Positions 6,106-43,033 of a DNA stretch of 64,000 nucleotides are shown here, piece after piece. Within the stretch, counting starts at the first letter, position 1; every line of letters starts with the position of its first letter. The stretch is from contig JAPLWH010000006.1 in the NCBI GenBank assembly GCA_026396715.1, forward strand, positions 42,850 to 106,849, given 5' to 3'. The position numbers and the translations under genes were made by a program. A model generated the notes under the pieces. That model saw only the letters and a list, made by a program, of their open reading frames with translations, ran no database searches and was not told the origin of the DNA. The DNA is from Candidatus Kaiserbacteria bacterium. GTDB taxonomy: Bacteria > Patescibacteriota > Minisyncoccia > Phycocordibacterales > Phycocordibacteraceae.

Positions 6106-6752
6106 GGGCAGGAAGGCGCTTTCGCAGTTATCTCTCCCGACGCCGCGACTGAGATGAAACGGGTACCGCCTTGAGGCGAAGAGATGGTAAGGCACGCTTT
6201 CGTCCCTTGTATGTTTATGAACGGATCGGGATTCGGGCGCGCAAAGACAATATCGAGCGACGACAGCCCCCCGCCCTGCGCATAGGCGCACGACCAGCCG
6301 CCAAATGAGTAGGCGCAAAAATCGCTCACGATTATGTTATTCCCCAACACATAGTCCATGACTTTTTCTCCCGGATCATACGTGCAGTTGCCGGACTTCG
6401 CGTCGGGAGCACTTGCACCGGCGGCGGGCAGTCCGTGACAGTTCGAAGCGTTCGGGCCGGGAGACGTGTCGGCAAAGAGCGTAAATGACCCGGGTGATAT
6501 CTTCTGAAAATTAAGACCGTACCCTGCGCTCGTTACCCCGTTGACCGCTCGGCCGGCGAGCCCATAGGTTTCGGCTGAACGCAGCGAGAGCGCGATGTCG
6601 TATGCGGTATTCGCGAGGATGATCGTCTTATTGAAAGAACTCTGACTGGAGAGCGTGACCGTCGTTATGGTAACGATGATCGCCAGCACGACCATAAGCT
6701 CGGTCAGCGTGAATCCGGACACTAAGCCGCGACGAAGATGAAAGGATTCCAT
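6102..6752 (-). CDS. Type IV prepilin-like protein (minor pilin/pseudopilin)
   Basis: Motif SGFTLTELMVVLAIIVTI near N-terminus. Confidence 0.65.
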   Translation of the reverse strand: MESFHLRRGLVSGFTLTELMVVLAIIVTITTVTLSSQSSFNKTIILANTAYDIALSLRSAETYGLAGRAVNGVTSAGYGLNFQKISPGSFTLFADTSPGPNASNCHGLPAAGASAPDAKSGNCTYDPGEKVMDYVLGNNIIVSDFCAYSFGGWSCAYAQGGGLSSLDIVFARPNPDPFINIQGTKACLTISSPQGGTRFISVAASGEITAKAPSCP

Positions 6753-37072: not shown

Positions 37073-37774
37073 CTATCGAAGTGTCTCCTTCCAGCGTTTG
37101 TAGAGGGCGGCGGTGGCGCGGAGGTCGCCGGCATTGTAGCGGGCGATGTCGAAGTACTTCCCTTCTTTGTAGAGCGTCGCGACGTCGTCGCCGGTCGTGC
37201 CGCCCGCTTTGGGACTCTCTATACCGAGCGCGCGACAGAAGAGGTGCAGACTCTTGCGGAAGCGCGCGGCGCCGTAGAACGTGAGCTGGTCCATCAGGTC
37301 GATATGCGCGGCGCCACGCTGCATCGAGAGGTAGCGGTTGCTGAGCAGGTCTTTCGTCGGCACGACGCGGTGCACCATCGAGCGGATGGCGAGGAACGGC
37401 GCATCGAAGCCGCGACCATTGAAGGAAACGAACTCCGTGCATACATTCGCGACTTTCCAGAATTGCTCGAGCATCGCTTTTTCATCCATCGCTTCGTATT
37501 TGATGCCGTCTATTTCACTGTTTGCAAGCTCGGTGCCAGGAGCGGAAAAATAGACCGCGCCTTTTTCTTTCTCGGTATCGTACACGCCGATCGCGACGAT
37601 AAAACCAGTAAGCGGCGAGAGCCCCATCCCCTCTTTCAATTCTTTCATCTCATATTCGTATTCTTCTTCGCTCTTCGACGATTCACGCAAATACCACGAC
37701 AGATTGTGCTGCGTCGTCTCATCAAGCGCGTCCCACGCTTCGCCGACTGTCTCGATATCGAATACGAGTGCCAT
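37073..37774 (-). CDS. Predicted 3'-5' exonuclease related to PolB exonuclease domain (RNase H-like)
   Basis: Start MALVFDIETVGE (Exo I DxE), later FNGRGFDAPFL and YNAGD (Exo III-like). Confidence 0.6.
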   Translation of the reverse strand: MALVFDIETVGEAWDALDETTQHNLSWYLRESSKSEEEYEYEMKELKEGMGLSPLTGFIVAIGVYDTEKEKGAVYFSAPGTELANSEIDGIKYEAMDEKAMLEQFWKVANVCTEFVSFNGRGFDAPFLAIRSMVHRVVPTKDLLSNRYLSMQRGAAHIDLMDQLTFYGAARFRKSLHLFCRALGIESPKAGGTTGDDVATLYKEGKYFDIARYNAGDLRATAALYKRWKETLR

Positions 37775-37814
37775 GGGCACAGTATAGCCATTTCCCATAG
37801 CAAAGCGAAGGTAC

Positions 37815-37826
37815 TATAGTTCCCCC
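37815..37826 (+). promoter_or_regulatory. -10 box TATAGT 6 nt upstream of MmeI-like ATG (probable leaderless transcript)
   Basis: gtacTATAGTtcccccATG; no SD sequence. Confidence 0.4.
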
Positions 37827-40604
37827 ATGCTCACTTGGAATGAGATGCGTGATAGGGCGACCAAATTCGCCCGCGCATGGAGAGACGAGACGCGCGAGAT
37901 GGGAGAATACCAGACCTTTTGGAACGAATTCTTCGACATATTCGGCATAAAGCGCCGTTCTGTCGCTATTTATCAACAACAGGTGGAAAAGCTCGGTGGA
38001 GGACGCGGATTCATCGATCTCTTCCAGCCAGGGAAACTTATCGCCGAACATAAGTCCGCTGGGAAAGATCTCGATGAAGCATTCATGCAGGCGATCGAAT
38101 ACTCTGCAGCTCTTCCCGAAGACATACGCCCCCGCTATATCATCATCACTGATTACGCGCACATGCGCCTCTGTGACCTCGAAGGCGAAAACGGAGAGAC
38201 GGAAAAATATGAGTTTCCCCTCTCGGACCTTCCGAAGCATATTCGGCACTTCGCATTCATTCCCGGCTATGAGGTGCGCAAATACCGTGAGCAGGATCCA
38301 GTGAACCGCAAGGCGGTGCGCGTCGTGGTCAATCTGTATCAGACGCTCGCAAAAAGTAATTACCCGCGGGAACATCTTGGGCACTTGCTCGTACGGCTCG
38401 TCTTCTGTTATTTCGCAGACGACGCCGGCATCTTCCCGCCCGGCGAGCCATTCCGCTATTACCTGGCACTCGGGAGCAGTGAAGACGGCAACGATTTCGG
38501 CAGCCGTCTCGATGCCGTCTTTTCAACATTGAACACACCCGAAGAAAGGCGGCAAACAACGCTCGATGAGCGGCTCGCTGAATTACCCTATGTAAATGGC
38601 GGACTCTTCGCCGATTACCTCCCTGTCGTCTTCTTCAACCGCGAGATGCGCCGTGCGGTGCTTGATGCTTGCGAGTTCAATTGGAGCGCAGTTTCCCCGG
38701 AGATTTTCGGCTCAATGTTCCAGTTCGTACTCGAAACCGACTCGGGCGACACTCGCCATGACTTCGGCGCCCACTACACTTCAGAGAAGAACATCCTGAA
38801 AGTCATCGACGGTCTCTTTATGGATGAGCTGCGTACCGAACTCTCCACAGCTGGCAAAAACACGGCAAAGCTGAATGCGCTCTGGGAGAAAATCGCTCGC
38901 ATTACCCTCCTCGACCCAGCCTGCGGTTGTGGCAACTTCCTTGTCGTCGCCTATAGAGAGCTGCGCCGTCTTGAGCTCGAAATATTGAAGCGTCTCCATC
39001 CGCAACACGCTGAGCAAGTAGAAGGAGCGGGTCAAACGGCGCTTCCAATAGACATCCGCCATCTTTCAAAACTTTCTGTCGAGCGGATGTACGGCATCGA
39101 GCTTCTCCACTTCCCCGCAGAAATAGCGAAGCTCTCGCTCTGGCTTACCGACCATCTTGCAAACATAGAGCTGGGCGATTATTTCGGTGTACCATTTGTG
39201 AAGCTTCCCTTGACCGAATCCCCGCACATCAAAGAAGGCAATGCGCTCACGCTCGACTGGGAATCTATAGTCCCGAAAGAAAATCTCTCCTATATCCTCG
39301 GCAATCCGCCCTTTATAGGATCGCGCGTCATGGACGCGAACCAAAAAGCGGACATGCTTGCCGTCTTCGGAAAAATCAGAGAACTCGGCTTTCTTGATTA
39401 TGTAACTGCTTGGTATAAGAAAGCCGCCACGTATATCCAAAATACGCCGATTAAAGTCGGCTTCGTATCAACAAACTCCATCACGCAAGGCGAACAGGTC
39501 GGCATCTTGTGGGAGCAATTGCATGCGCTCAATATTCACATCCATTTCGCGCATCGTACCTTCAAGTGGAGTAACGAGGCACCGGGGAAGGCCGCCGTGT
39601 ATTGCGTCATCATCGGTTTCGCGGCGTTCCCTTCAGAGCGACCTCGACTTTTTGATTACGAAGATGTTCGCGGCGAAGCTCACGAAGTAAGTGTAAAAGA
39701 AATAAATCCCTATCTAGTCGCGGCACCAGAAAATGTCATTGTACGCAACCGCCACAAACCAATTTCAGAGGTACCCGAGATGTCATTCGGCAATATGCCG
39801 CGGGATGCCGGCGCATTTATTTTGAGCGAAGAGGAACGTGCAAATCTTCTTGCGCAGGAACCAGCAGCAGAAAAGTTTGTTCGCGATTATATGGGCGCGC
39901 AAGAATTTTTGCATAGTGAGAAACGCTACTGTCTCTGGCTTGTGGACGCAAAACCCGAAGAGCTTCGCGCACTCCCACTAGTCATGCGCCGTATTGAAAA
40001 CGTTCGCGCATTTCGCGAGTTAAGTGCCGCGGCTTCAACACGCAAAATGGCAGAAACGCCATCTCTCTTCGCGCAACGCACACAACCAAAAAGTGATTAC
40101 GTACTTATTCCGAGTACCTCGTCTGAAAATCGTCGATATGTTCCGATGGGCTTTATGCCCAAGGAAGTAATAGCCAGTAATAGTTGTCACACTATACCAA
40201 GTGCAACTCTCTATCACTTCGGCGTTCTTGAAAGCGAGCTCCATATGACCTGGATGCGTGCTATCTGCGGACGACTTGAAAGTCGCTATCGTTATTCTAA
40301 AGACATTGTCTACAACAATTTCCCGTGGCTGGAAAATCCTTCAACGGAAGTGAAGAAGGCGGTCGAAGATGCGGCACAGGCAATCCTCAATGTGCGTGCT
40401 GCGCACCCCGGCGCAACGCTTGCCGACCTCTACGACCCGCTCACGATGCCCACCGATCTCCTCGCGGCGCACCACGCGCTCGACCGCGCCGTCGACCGCG
40501 CCTACGACATTACCAAGCCCTTCCCATCCGAATCCGCCCGTCTCGAATTTCTATTTGAGAAATACCAAAAACTTCTGCAACGAACGCCTACAAAGAAAAT
40601 CTGA
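37827..40604 (+). CDS. MmeI-family Type IIL/IIG restriction-modification enzyme (endonuclease + N6-adenine methyltransferase + TRD in one polypeptide)
   Basis: 925 aa; N-terminus MLTWNEMRDRATKFARAWRDE...FWNEFFDIFGI matches MmeI nuclease domain; MTase motif I LDPACGCGNFLV, motif IV GNPPFIG; FVSTNSITQGEQV; C-terminal SRYRYS...FPW and LADLYDP motifs. Confidence 0.88.
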   Translation: MLTWNEMRDRATKFARAWRDETREMGEYQTFWNEFFDIFGIKRRSVAIYQQQVEKLGGGRGFIDLFQPGKLIAEHKSAGKDLDEAFMQAIEYSAALPEDIRPRYIIITDYAHMRLCDLEGENGETEKYEFPLSDLPKHIRHFAFIPGYEVRKYREQDPVNRKAVRVVVNLYQTLAKSNYPREHLGHLLVRLVFCYFADDAGIFPPGEPFRYYLALGSSEDGNDFGSRLDAVFSTLNTPEERRQTTLDERLAELPYVNGGLFADYLPVVFFNREMRRAVLDACEFNWSAVSPEIFGSMFQFVLETDSGDTRHDFGAHYTSEKNILKVIDGLFMDELRTELSTAGKNTAKLNALWEKIARITLLDPACGCGNFLVVAYRELRRLELEILKRLHPQHAEQVEGAGQTALPIDIRHLSKLSVERMYGIELLHFPAEIAKLSLWLTDHLANIELGDYFGVPFVKLPLTESPHIKEGNALTLDWESIVPKENLSYILGNPPFIGSRVMDANQKADMLAVFGKIRELGFLDYVTAWYKKAATYIQNTPIKVGFVSTNSITQGEQVGILWEQLHALNIHIHFAHRTFKWSNEAPGKAAVYCVIIGFAAFPSERPRLFDYEDVRGEAHEVSVKEINPYLVAAPENVIVRNRHKPISEVPEMSFGNMPRDAGAFILSEEERANLLAQEPAAEKFVRDYMGAQEFLHSEKRYCLWLVDAKPEELRALPLVMRRIENVRAFRELSAAASTRKMAETPSLFAQRTQPKSDYVLIPSTSSENRRYVPMGFMPKEVIASNSCHTIPSATLYHFGVLESELHMTWMRAICGRLESRYRYSKDIVYNNFPWLENPSTEVKKAVEDAAQAILNVRAAHPGATLADLYDPLTMPTDLLAAHHALDRAVDRAYDITKPFPSESARLEFLFEKYQKLLQRTPTKKI

Positions 40605-40606
40605 TT

Positions 40607-40834
40607 TCAACCGCGAGGCGGAAAATCATCGTTTCCATACGAGTTTCGCCATCCGATTCTGCCATTCTCATTCTGCACGAATAGTTCGGCCTCTTTATTG
40701 ATAGCGACTTCGCGTGCTCGTACAACCGCTTCCGCTTTCGTGTCATATATACCTGCAGCCCGTTCTGCTCCCGCGGAATGTACCTTCCAATCCTCGCCTG
40801 ATGGACTAACCCATACTTGCTTTTGCTTGCTCAT
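40607..40834 (-). CDS. DUF2188-family protein
   Basis: 75 aa; WKV...TKAEA...A..A....EL.V...G.I....SYGNDDFPPRG pattern. Confidence 0.6.
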   Translation of the reverse strand: MSKQKQVWVSPSGEDWKVHSAGAERAAGIYDTKAEAVVRAREVAINKEAELFVQNENGRIGWRNSYGNDDFPPRG

Positions 40835-40920
40835 GTTAATTCTGCATTACTTGATAATAAAACTCTTGTCTCTTCCTTCTTCGGTAACCGAATTGAGTCC
40901 ATTTTATTCCTCAAATATCC

Positions 40921-40973
40921 ACTGTCAATATCCCCGACATATATTTGACAGTAATTCTGACACTGCTACCATA
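40921..40973 (+). promoter_or_regulatory. 8-bp inverted repeat (actgtcaa-N16-ttgacagt) overlapping -35 TTGACA of putative promoter for HTH-Panacea gene
   Basis: IR 40921-40928 / 40945-40952; TTGACA 40945-40950, 16-nt spacer, TACCAT 40967-40972, ATG at 40979. Confidence 0.45.
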
Positions 40974-40978
40974 GACCT

Positions 40979-41761
40979 ATGACCACCGCACTTCTAAAAA
41001 AACTTCGGGAGGAACAAGCATTGTCACAAGATTCAATAGCGAGAGAGCTTGGTATTTCGCGCCCGACATATATCGCGATTGAACAAGGGAAACGCAAGCT
41101 TACCCTCTCTGAAGCGGAGTGTTTGGCACAGATGTTTAGTATCTCACTCGACGAACTTGTCTACGGGAAACGTCGCAAGGTGGATGTCGTCTTATCGAAA
41201 ACACCGGTACCAAAGAAGGTAGCTGCGGAAAATGGTATACGCATCAGCGTCCCAGCCGAGAATAAAGAGAAGTTCAAACAGGTACTGCTCTATATTCTTG
41301 AAAAAATCGGTAGCAAGCCGAATATCGGCATGACCGCCCTCTATAAAATCCTCTATTTCATCGACTTCGACTACTACGAGAAATTCGAAGAACAACTCAT
41401 GGGTGCTGTGTACATCCGCAATCATTATGGTCCGACTCCTGTTGCCTTCACAAAAATCGTGAAAGAAATGGAACGCGAGGGTACTCTTGCAGCAATCGAA
41501 ACAAAGTATTTTCAACATGAACAGAAGAAATTCCTTCCTCGCACGAAGCCAGAATTAAAACAACTTTCTGGTCAAGAAATTGCACATATCGATGAAACGC
41601 TAGCGCGGCTTGGCGACAAGAACGCTCGTGAACTTACCGAGCTGTCTCATCGCGATATCCCATGGATGTGCGTCAAAGATGGCGAGCCGCTTGAATATGA
41701 GTCCGTCTTTTATCGTTCAGATGAGACTTCACAACGTGATTATGGACCGGATCCGTTATGA
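40979..41761 (+). CDS. XRE-family HTH + Panacea (DUF4065) domain protein, antitoxin-like (PanA/SocA-like)
   Basis: N-terminal HTH (LSQDSIARELGISRPTYIAIEQGKRKLTLSEAECLAQMF); central ALYKILYFIDFDYYEKFEEQLMGAVYIRNHYGPTP matches DUF4065. Confidence 0.7.
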   Translation: MTTALLKKLREEQALSQDSIARELGISRPTYIAIEQGKRKLTLSEAECLAQMFSISLDELVYGKRRKVDVVLSKTPVPKKVAAENGIRISVPAENKEKFKQVLLYILEKIGSKPNIGMTALYKILYFIDFDYYEKFEEQLMGAVYIRNHYGPTPVAFTKIVKEMEREGTLAAIETKYFQHEQKKFLPRTKPELKQLSGQEIAHIDETLARLGDKNARELTELSHRDIPWMCVKDGEPLEYESVFYRSDETSQRDYGPDPL

Positions 41762-42125
41762 GGAAACGCTAGGGTTCGCTCATGACATCAAGAAGCTCCT
41801 TAAACGCTTCCGCTCACTCCGAGCAGATATAGAAGTAGCAAAACGCTACGCGTTAGAACCTTTCCATGCCGAGCCGCGCATAGACACGAATGCTATCGAA
41901 GAAATTTCGGGGTCATGTACGGAAGAAGTGCGGGCATGCAAAATAAAAAAATTCACATGCCGGGCAATCAAGGGGCGAGGTGTTATGAGCGGAATCCGCA
42001 TTACCTATGCGTATCACATCCGACAGAAGCGTGTGGTGTTCATCGAGATTTATTTCAAGGGCGACAAAGAGAATGAGGATCGCGCGCGGATTAAAGAATA
42101 TCTCGAGAGTATACTAGACGCATGA
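41742..42125 (+). CDS. RelE/ParE-superfamily (HigB/Gp49-like) toxin candidate
   Basis: 127 aa from MDRIRYEETLGF...; C-terminal GIRITYAYHIRQKRVVFIEIYFKGDKENEDRARIKEY resembles RelE/HigB core; 20-nt overlap with upstream gene, ATGA overlap with downstream. Confidence 0.45.
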   Translation: MDRIRYEETLGFAHDIKKLLKRFRSLRADIEVAKRYALEPFHAEPRIDTNAIEEISGSCTEEVRACKIKKFTCRAIKGRGVMSGIRITYAYHIRQKRVVFIEIYFKGDKENEDRARIKEYLESILDA

Positions 42126-43033
42126 ATGCAAAAGTGATTCGTGCGGCTACAGCACTAATTCTCGCGCTCGCGGCGGGCGCGATGGGATACACGGCGGGCG
42201 GGAGCGGAACGGAAAGTCCGAACATAAGCATCCCCGCTCAAACTATTGCCGCACCAACAGCAGGCACGACACGCGTGATTTACAGCCTCGATCAGAAACA
42301 GAATGATAAAGAACTCATCGCACTCATCAATGCCGCAGAGGACCACATCTACTTCGCGATCTACACCTTTACCCTTCCGACTATCGCCGACGCTCTCGTC
42401 AAAGCAAAAAAGCGCGGCGTCGATGTGAAAGGACTCATGGACTCCGAGCAAAGCGGCAACAGTTACGGCACTCCTATTACTGCAAAACTGCGTGACGCCG
42501 GTATTCCTCTCCTTGTAGAGCGACACGCAAGTGGCAACGGCATCATGCACATAAAACTCCTTGTGACGGAACAGGCGTACGCCTTTGGCAGCTATAACTG
42601 GACCAATTCCGCGACAACTCTCAACGATGAAATCCTCGAAATCGGTACCGACCCGGCACTGCGGCAGACGTACGAAAATATTTTGAAACGACTGTTTGAT
42701 GCCTATAAAGGCAACGCGGCCGCGGGAGCGGCCGCGAGTGTTTCTATCGGGACCATCGACTACACGCAAGCACCCGCGCACGTCGGCCAAAGAGCCTCCG
42801 TGCGCGGCACCCTCGTCAAAGCCTATACCTCCGCAAGTGGTACCGTCTTCCTCGATTTCTGCGAGAATTACAAAAACTGCCCCTTTTCAGGCGTCATCTT
42901 CGCCGACGATGTAAAAAAATTCGGCACCCTTTCTCGCTACAATGGGACCGCCATCACCCTTACCGGCAAAATCTCCTCCTACCAGGGAAAAGCCGAAATC
43001 GTCCTTTCTAATCCGAATCAAATCTCTCTGTGA
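42122..43033 (+). CDS. Secreted phospholipase D (HKD)-family nuclease (Nuc-like) fused to C-terminal OB-fold domain
   Basis: Signal peptide MNAKVIRAATALILALAAGAMG; single HKD-like motif HIKLLVTE...GSYNWT; C-terminal ~100 aa with OB-fold-like pattern (VRGTLVKAY..SGTVFLDF...ITLTGKISSYQGKAEIVL). Confidence 0.65.
   Translation: MNAKVIRAATALILALAAGAMGYTAGGSGTESPNISIPAQTIAAPTAGTTRVIYSLDQKQNDKELIALINAAEDHIYFAIYTFTLPTIADALVKAKKRGVDVKGLMDSEQSGNSYGTPITAKLRDAGIPLLVERHASGNGIMHIKLLVTEQAYAFGSYNWTNSATTLNDEILEIGTDPALRQTYENILKRLFDAYKGNAAAGAAASVSIGTIDYTQAPAHVGQRASVRGTLVKAYTSASGTVFLDFCENYKNCPFSGVIFADDVKKFGTLSRYNGTAITLTGKISSYQGKAEIVLSNPNQISL

Follow-up and report, generated by a model that had tools for sequence, protein, structure and literature searches.

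The open reading frame at nucleotides 42122–43033 (+ strand) of a Kaiserbacteria contig encodes a 303-amino-acid protein that combines a phospholipase D (PLD)-type domain with a C-terminal OB fold. Its start codon overlaps the stop codon of a toxin candidate (ATGA), in a row that also holds an antitoxin and a restriction–modification (RM) enzyme. Is this gene, here called PLD–OB, a component of a toxin–antitoxin (TA) or RM defence locus, or does it serve the cell in another capacity? We followed its domains, its neighbourhood in related genomes and its coding sequence, starting from the 64,000-nucleotide stretch of DNA in which it lies (the window).

A single-HKD PLD domain joined to an OB fold

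The NCBI protein that is 100% identical to the product is named ‘phospholipase D-like domain-containing protein [Candidatus Kaiserbacteria bacterium]’. Homologues number at least 757; the top 120 are full-length, share 72–86% identity and come only from Kaiserbacteria, Paceibacterota and other Patescibacteria metagenome bins. A scan of species-representative genomes, one per species, gave at least 556 related loci, and the window itself contains no paralogue of either the PLD or the OB domain.

The N terminus, MxxKxIRA, is conserved among the homologues, which indicates that the start at 42122 is correct. Residues 1–23 (MNAKVIRAATALILALAAGAMGY; 42122–42190, +) are a predicted export signal or signal-anchor: across the 120 homologues, an n-region with a net charge of +2 precedes an Ala/Leu-rich uncharged run with a median length of 20 amino acids, a pattern that fits a Sec signal or a signal-anchor. 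A lipoprotein signal is ruled out by the absence of the lipobox Cys, and a prepilin signal by the absence of the G/hydrophobic-E pattern. Residues 24–50 are Gly/Ser-rich and variable, apart from a conserved IPAQTVSAP motif within them.

The PLD domain spans residues 65–191 (42314–42694, +) and matches Pfam PLDc_2 (PF13091) with E=2.5e-22 and 79.6 bits against a cut-off of 27. Its active-site signature, H143xK145(x)4E150(x)5G156S157xN159 (42548–42598, +), occurs once, as the first-pass annotation had proposed from the letters; the alignment of 120 homologues shows no variation at H, K, G, S or N, nor at the downstream residues N168-D-E170, of which E170 is counted among the catalytic residues. 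The same annotation had read Glu in place of Asp at the fourth motif position as typical of Nuc-like endonucleases, a reading that did not hold. Nuc and NucT both carry D there, and 91 of the 120 homologues have E and the other 29 have D; we dropped the substitution as a diagnostic because the two residues alternate among close homologues. The spacer that follows is x5 in 120 of 120 homologues, one residue shorter than in HxK(x)4D(x)6GSxN, the x6 form of Nuc and NucT.

Sequence matches in the PDB are led by Nuc (1byr, 6.8e-12) and NucT (6ehi, 3.6e-07), and MitoPLD/Zucchini is also among the nearest. The AlphaFold2 (AF2) model superimposes on Nuc 1byr with a TM score of 0.77 (Foldseek, E=8.6e-09). 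The full-length monomer model has a moderate pLDDT of 70, with low confidence at the active-site loops, as expected when the dimer partner is missing. The profile search that had been suggested for PLDc_2 and Nuc families also placed NucT as the nearest named model, followed by DrmC, DpdK and cardiolipin synthase, each far under its equivalog cut-off. Given that the NCBIfam NucT scores lie far below their cut-offs (53.3 bits against 351 for NF010493), the protein is a relative of NucT and not its orthologue or equivalog. Identity with DrmC of DISARM was rejected on a score of 31.5 bits against 133 and on the absence of DrmA, DrmB and methyltransferase partner genes from the neighbourhood; identity with DpdK of Dpd was rejected likewise (24.8 bits against 100, with no dpd cluster nearby). 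Both names also appear as weak PADLOC matches of the protein. Cardiolipin synthase or another two-HKD phospholipase was set aside on the single motif and on a TIGR04265 score of 21 bits against 290.

Residues 206–303 (42737–43030, +; pI 9.0) fold into a five-stranded closed β-barrel with a helix between strands 3 and 4, so that the OB-fold domain read from the sequence at first pass is confirmed, even though its own Pfam score is sub-threshold (tRNA_anti_2, 16.3 bits against 27). The N-terminal OB of XseA is a further sub-threshold match, and four relatives (P0244, P0256, P0317 and P0359) pass PF01336 on the equivalent stretches. Exactly two cysteines, both in this domain (C-x5-C), are present in 115 of the 120 homologues. 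The pair, C247-x5-C253, is invariant within the domain and is the basis for a predicted disulfide, which would probably stabilize the OB domain outside the cell.

A search with the OB domain recovered 1,373 relatives among 1.8 billion cluster representatives. Many are proteins of 120–180 amino acids in which a linker connects a hydrophobic N-terminal anchor to a single OB domain, and others are tandem OB arrays. Together with the N-terminal features and the confinement of both cysteines to the OB domain, the anchored stand-alone relatives speak for the predicted export of PLD–OB. Among ten sampled relatives, four combine a two-HKD PLD region with OB repeats, two to four in number, that score above the PF01336 threshold, and a fifth (P0286) is an anchor–OB–staphylococcal-nuclease fusion. 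From the PLD side, closely related domains in Omnitrophota and Planctomycetia bins bear a different DNA-binding tail, an Ada-like zinc module. The pI of 9.0, the conserved aromatic and basic residues and the fusion partners suggest that the OB domain binds nucleic acid. That nucleic acid is also the substrate is argued most strongly, at the level of sequence, by the repeated joining of these domains to nucleases and DNA-binding modules.

These fusions bear on the possibility that the protein is a lipid phosphodiesterase, a hydrolase or transferase of the cardiolipin or phospholipid type that would remodel or harvest host lipids while its barrel binds a ligand other than nucleic acid. MitoPLD, a single-HKD relative, was first described as a lipid hydrolase, and CPR bacteria lack fatty-acid synthesis; MitoPLD/Zucchini stands among the best PDB matches, and the weak cardiolipin-synthase matches point the same way. 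However, the protein has one HKD motif instead of two, its cardiolipin-synthase score falls far short of the cut-off, it is fused to an OB domain of the nucleic-acid type with relatives joined to SNase nucleases, and Zucchini is itself a nuclease. We consider this reading very unlikely.

An inserted islet beside a core gene

Neighbouring genes were examined in 80 loci, fetched from the at least 556 that are related. About 40 of the 80 are syntenic orthologues with 44–86% identity, and they share a fixed gene order: mutY–nth–(prx)–membrane protein–(msrB/msrA or DedA/DUF2127/FMN reductase)–exonuclease (− strand)–PLD–infC–rpmI–rplT–…–MBL-fold hydrolase gene. PLD–OB is a core, vertically inherited gene of Kaiserbacteria. 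Its ancestral divergent neighbour, a PolB-exo-like 3′–5′ exonuclease (DNA_pol_B_exo2 in Pfam), is retained in the window at 37073–37774 (−). In at least 12 relatives the exonuclease and PLD genes are divergent, with about 20 bp between the two start codons (CAT-nnGCACAGTATACTnGAnGn-ATG).

In the window this spacer is split. Its left half ends in …GGGCACAGTATA at 37786 and its right half starts at 42108 with AGTATACTAGACGC-ATG; between them lies a defence islet of 4,327 bp, counting one repeat copy (37787–42113), delimited by reconstruction of the empty site and by GC content. Excising 37787–42113 recreates the empty site of three relatives (L001, L002 and L017). In L002, the closest relative without the island, the flanking genes are 97–100% identical and PLD lies directly beside the divergent exonuclease gene. 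The GC content of the islet is 0.50 (0.46 for its DUF2188 and TA part), against 0.55 for the window, and its borders are marked by 6-bp direct repeats, AGTATA, at 37781–37786 and 42108–42113, either a target duplication or microhomology.

Four genes make up the islet: an MmeI-family type IIL RM enzyme (37827–40604, +; five of five MmeI domains in Pfam); a small DUF2188 protein (40607–40834, −; Pfam), which matches the PADLOC candidate PDC-S16; an antitoxin with HTH_3 and SocA/Panacea (DUF4065) domains (40979–41761, +), identified by Pfam and a promoter scan; and the toxin candidate of 127 amino acids (41742–42125, +), which belongs to no Pfam family. By reading, the island region holds no open reading frames beyond the MmeI enzyme, DUF2188 and the TA pair, and the junctions show just the 6-bp repeat. 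A near-identical strain from an independent sequencing run (L083) has an identical junction, so the islet is real and not an assembly artefact. On this sequence comparison, it is a recent insertion into the roughly 20-bp spacer upstream of the PLD gene.

The end of the toxin gene records the same event. Its 356 homologues, which span many CPR lineages and a few other phyla, typically have 123–126 amino acids and end 2–4 residues past a conserved EYL. The toxin of the window ends EYL-E-SILDA, and the codons AGT ATA CTA GAC GCA TGA, which specify S-I-L-D-A-stop, are the former 5′ spacer of PLD, with the right-hand repeat encoding S-I. As this tail is derived from the spacer, the toxin frame evidently crosses the junction and stops by chance at a TGA that overlaps the ATG of PLD. 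The ATGA overlap reported in the first-pass annotation is therefore present, although its meaning as coupling is lost: it reads as a by-product, a junction artefact of the 4.3-kb insertion.

Upstream of the start codon, PLD keeps a −10-like box from the ancestral spacer (TATACT, 42110–42115, +), 6 nt before the ATG. Of 28 orthologous loci, 24 have a TAnnnT hexamer at −12/−13, 6–7 nt from the start, irrespective of the upstream gene; in the divergent arrangement it falls within the palindrome AGTATACT and could thus serve both the exonuclease and the PLD gene. Within the islet, 6 nt separate a TATAGT from the ATG of the MmeI gene, and the promoter scan placed a promoter-like site, TTGACA-16-TACCAT, before the antitoxin gene, ending at 40972, also 6 nt from the ATG. 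Such −10-like boxes 6 nt from an ATG suggest leaderless transcription. With a conserved box of its own, PLD need not be co-operonic with the TA pair or dependent on its promoter. Read-through into PLD is still possible, as there is no terminator between toxin and PLD.

The upstream pair, an HTH and Panacea antitoxin followed by a small toxin, resembles a bona fide member of the PanAT systems (PMC8832971), and the same pair is found in other CPR genomes; PLD–OB lies outside that system. In Azambacteria, the TA pair, with the antitoxin overlapping the toxin, adjoins recG without PLD, which marks it as an autonomous mobile two-gene module. Homologues of MmeI, DUF2188, the Panacea antitoxin and the 127-amino-acid toxin are present in 0 of the 80 fetched loci, and among the loci compared PLD–TA adjacency is found only in this strain and in L083.

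These observations decide the question of affiliation. The nuclease could be imagined as a functional third gene of a TA/RM defence locus, co-transcribed with the toxin and translationally coupled to it; the ATGA overlap, the missing terminator between the two genes, the weak DrmC and DpdK matches in PADLOC and the same arrangement in L083 all fit that picture. Against it stand the 0 of 80 loci with any such link, an island bounded by a 6-bp repeat inside an ancestral spacer, the spacer-derived toxin tail, the TA pair beside recG in Azambacteria, the −10 box that PLD keeps as its own, a DrmC score far below the cut-off and the predicted export of the protein, which is not expected of a defence nuclease. 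We give this scenario almost no credence. Since the islet was inserted into an old spacer and the overlap was made from that spacer, the coupling to the TA pair is incidental. The earlier view of a meaningful coupling to the TA pair or the RM enzyme is contradicted by the 80 loci, about 40 of them syntenic: the suggested check of homologues for linked DUF4065 genes came out negative in all 80. A 4-bp overlap of start and stop codons, usually read as operon coupling, can come purely from the insertion of an islet into a short promoter spacer.

Proposed role at the cell surface

The nearest characterized systems are Nuc (plasmid pKM101, Salmonella; 1byr) and NucT (Helicobacter pylori; 6ehi), which share with PLD–OB the single HKD motif and the same α/β fold and have an N-terminal export signal of the kind predicted for it. 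Identity to them is only about 28%. PLD–OB adds a linker of about 45 residues after the signal, which contains IPAQTVSAP, the Ala-rich interdomain linker and the OB domain of about 100 amino acids, and its host is probably a monoderm, so that the protein would be surface-exposed rather than periplasmic. An OB region on a secreted or envelope-bound nuclease also occurs in Bacillus subtilis YhcR, Shewanella ExeM and Vibrio Xds, and the OB domain of PLD–OB is of the same tRNA_anti-codon type as in OB-bearing extracellular nucleases. The catalytic domains of those enzymes are SNase, 5′-nucleotidase or EEP domains, whereas PLD–OB has a PLD domain, is much smaller and carries a single OB domain. Close fold matches are also found in Zucchini/MitoPLD (PLD6) and PLD3/PLD4, PLD-family nucleases of single-stranded RNA or DNA; these are eukaryotic, reside at the mitochondrial outer membrane or in the lysosome and lack an OB domain, and PLD3 and PLD4 have two HKD motifs. 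PLD–OB is an uncharacterized architectural variant of known exported PLD nucleases.

Single-HKD members of the PLD family act as homodimers, and CPR bacteria (Patescibacteria) lack nucleotide synthesis. We favour, with moderate confidence, the hypothesis that PLD–OB is an exported nuclease of the Nuc/NucT type whose OB domain grips the substrate and which scavenges nucleic acid at the cell surface. The protein would probably be exported and then held at the membrane by a tether or associated with the wall. By analogy with the family, two H-x-K motifs would come together in a homodimer as a single active site, which would cleave the backbone of DNA, RNA or both endonucleolytically, through a phospho-histidine and independently of metal, while the basic OB domain would hold the DNA or RNA. 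Most likely, it would degrade nucleic acid from the environment or a host at the surface so that nucleotides and phosphate can be salvaged, a fitting role in Kaiserbacteria because, as CPR bacteria, they do not synthesize nucleotides; preparing DNA for uptake may be a further task of the protein. The nutritional nuclease of the first-pass annotation is accordingly kept as the best reading of a Nuc/NucT-like PLD domain, an export-type N terminus and an OB domain, with its role worded conditionally.

Published work on related proteins and organisms is consistent with such a role. NucT prefers single-stranded DNA and has been implicated in purine salvage, with external DNA as the proposed source (PMC5714352), and the nuclease activity of ExeM needs its OB region (PMC6085458). 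For Patescibacteria, nucleobase salvage has been put forward as the purpose of their secreted nucleases, in a survey that reported SNc-type nucleases and in which PLD lay outside the domains screened (PMC11495043). Southlakia, the only CPR bacterium amenable to genetics, can grow without comEC (PMC10633639); taking up long DNA therefore need not be the nutritional route, which makes extracellular digestion more attractive. Salvage from the products of a nuclease would in turn call for transporters and nucleotidases.

DNA-uptake processing is a close rival of the scavenging hypothesis. It would make PLD–OB an entry nuclease of the competence type, tethered to the cell surface, which binds incoming DNA by its OB domain and nicks or degrades one strand so that single-stranded DNA enters through ComEC; EndA and NucA would be its functional analogues, and its main purpose would be uptake or transformation rather than bulk digestion. 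NucT, a close structural relative, prefers single-stranded DNA and is linked to natural transformation, ComEC, ComFC, DprA and type IV pili are conserved in CPR bacteria, and an N-terminal anchor combined with an OB domain suits a surface DNA handler. However, the transformation phenotype of nucT is mild, and synteny with com or pil genes is absent from about 40 genomes, in which the neighbours are the exonuclease gene, DedA, msrAB and infC. At the level of sequence, entry and scavenging are not separated, and we regard the former as unlikely though worth keeping in view.

A secreted nuclease could also act as a weapon or a means of escape that degrades the DNA of hosts or competitors or the extracellular DNA (eDNA) of biofilms. 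ExeM and Xds, extracellular nucleases with OB regions, do act on biofilm eDNA and NETs, and Kaiserbacteria are presumed to be episymbionts. Yet the gene context of PLD–OB is free of toxin-delivery and immunity genes, and PLD–OB belongs to the core genes, strictly in single copy and with housekeeping genes as its syntenic neighbours; this role is improbable in our view.

A hairpin in the linker-coding sequence

The most surprising item of the analysis lies in the DNA of the interdomain linker. The two domains are joined by an invariant linker, GN-AAA-x-AAA (residues 197–205), and the stretch that encodes its AAAGAAA (42715–42736, +) forms a perfect, all-GC hairpin of 9 bp, CGCGGCCGC-GGGA-GCGGCCGCG, with a folding z score of −3.7. 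The pattern GCGGCCGC-N(2-8)-GCGGCCGC recurs at this exact position of the PLD gene in at least 29 loci, and its sole other match in those loci lies outside the PLD gene, in L030. Across the orthologues, the codons for Ala200, Ala203 and Ala204 have an entropy of 0–0.4 bits, that is, their synonymous sites are frozen, whereas other invariant four-fold-degenerate codons mostly show about 1.0–2.3 bits, with 4 of 40 outside the linker at 0.48–0.80.

When 35 orthologues are aligned, 99.4% of the alignment cells in the stem are paired. Two-sided changes occur in four of the nine pairs and one-sided changes in none, values that 0 of 500 shuffles reach. Some of the compensation is silent, as in L026 and L030, where C-G became G-C, and some alters the protein: C-G became U-A in L011 (Ala to Val) and G-C became A-U in L013 (Ala to Thr). 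A further compensatory change flips the outer stem pair in L028. An 8-bp stem is retained in L016, where the linker is shorter, and L036 (55% identity) has an unrelated stem of 11–12 bp at the equivalent position. Distant orthologues of low GC content have no hairpin. Judged by these substitution patterns, the linker hairpin is under selection.

We tentatively propose, at somewhat below even confidence, that the hairpin functions in cis as an RNA structure within the coding sequence, kept by compensatory changes even where they alter amino acids. It could act as a translation-coupled attenuator, as a ribosome pause between the domains or as an element of RNase action, stability or processing. 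Several other explanations were considered. An intrinsic terminator is not favoured: GUUUCUAU starts 4 nt past the stem, and this tract is missing in L036. A frameshift stimulator would call for a conserved slippery heptamer upstream of the hairpin, which is absent. The fossil terminator of a PLD-only ancestor was rejected because no hairpin follows the stop codons of PLD-only relatives (Doudnabacteria and others), a weak test given their low GC content. Nor does GCGGCCGC behave as an uptake- or restriction-related motif, with 5 occurrences in the window against 4.2 expected. The hairpin region matches no Rfam family.

If this proposal is true, the RNA dictates the ‘AAAxAAA’ linker peptide and not the reverse, and the hairpin, together with the leaderless promoter geometry, would constitute a gene-specific regulatory device across Kaiserbacteria. 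The coding-region hairpin would then offer a small, tractable example of selection on RNA structure overriding protein sequence.

How CPR bacteria obtain their nucleotides is an open question, and surveys of secreted nucleases of the kind cited above (PMC11495043) searched for SNase, NUC, HNH and endonuclease types only. Conserved across hundreds of species of Kaiserbacteria, a PLD-type nuclease that would work at the surface and grip its substrate through an OB domain is a concrete, testable candidate for the step with which nucleic-acid scavenging begins in this lineage.

A defence islet between the exonuclease and PLD genes

The spacer between the PLD gene (42122-43033, + strand) and its ancestral divergent neighbour, a PolB-exo-like exonuclease gene (37073-37774, - strand), is occupied by a 4,327-bp defence islet (37787-42113) that encodes an MmeI-type IIL RM enzyme, a DUF2188 protein, an HTH-Panacea antitoxin and a toxin. 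A 6-bp direct repeat, AGTATA, lies on both sides of the islet, and a reading of its ORFs, rather than a dedicated search, revealed no integrase or transposase ORF. Through the insertion, the exonuclease ORF gains 8 islet-encoded codons (ATG at 37798 versus the conserved start at 37774).

The 127-amino-acid toxin (41742-42125; homologues P0121-P0240), whose start is overlapped by the stop of its HTH+Panacea antitoxin partner, is one of at least 356 related proteins, which come from numerous CPR lineages and also from a few further phyla. No Pfam model covers this family, and JGI labels some of its members as RelE-like. The invariant residues of the family include C66, K67, C73, S83-G-I-R86 and Y104-F-K106. 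Encoded between the RM gene and the toxin-antitoxin pair, the DUF2188 protein (75 amino acids; 40607-40834, - strand) is matched over its full length by the PADLOC phage-defence candidate PDC-S16 (E = 9e-27), and its gene and that of the antitoxin diverge from a common promoter-like region (40901-40972).

On the other side of the PLD gene, the spacer that precedes infC differs in content among related loci from other genomes, with inserts at L011:6943-7332, L014:7380-7763, L037:6836-7381 and L003:6986-7477, and also in L005, L006 and L044. Two genomes carry MazF/PemK-like toxins here, one has a methylpurine DNA glycosylase, and four encode an unannotated protein of 163-184 amino acids. The PLD gene thus seems to be bordered on each side by a hotspot for small insertions.

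Conserved and variable parts of the PLD protein

The motif I-P-A-Q-T-V-S-A-P (residues 37-45; 42230-42256), which follows the signal region and precedes the PLD domain, is nearly invariant, yet no structure is predicted for it (pLDDT <50). It may be a processing site, serve in wall attachment or form a dimer contact. The AAAxAAA interdomain linker is encoded by a 9-bp all-GC hairpin (42715-42736) that occurs at the same position in the L001-L036 orthologues and has no Rfam match. Synonymous sites within it are frozen, and the stem is kept by compensatory changes, some of which alter amino acids (L011 and L013); L036 has a stem of other sequence at the same place.

Relatives of the C-terminal OB domain (query region 42728-43030; P0241-P0389) make up an extensive family of modules that are exported or anchored and bear the signature FC-x2-Y-x2-CPF...SYQG-AEI. 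They occur as single-domain proteins of 120-180 amino acids, as tandem arrays and as fusions to PLD, SNase or DUF6882; no Pfam model reaches threshold for the single modules. Related PLD domains are also found in Omnitrophota and Planctomycetia bins (L072 and L076, where the PLD ORF ends at 6382 and at 6702, respectively), and in these proteins the OB domain is replaced by a C-terminal extension of about 84 amino acids with a Cys-rich, Ada-like zinc DNA-binding signature.

Promoter spacing and possible leaderless transcription

The exonuclease-PLD spacer of about 20 bp contains the palindrome AGTATACT (L001:5975-6000 and equivalents; 37781-37786 and 42108-42115 in the window), which places a TATACT box 6-7 nt from the start codon of each divergent gene. 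Many genes in other CPR loci have the same -10-to-ATG distance, as do the MmeI gene, whose TATAGT ends at 37820, and the antitoxin gene, whose TACCAT ends at 40972; this recurring spacing suggests that leaderless transcription is widespread.
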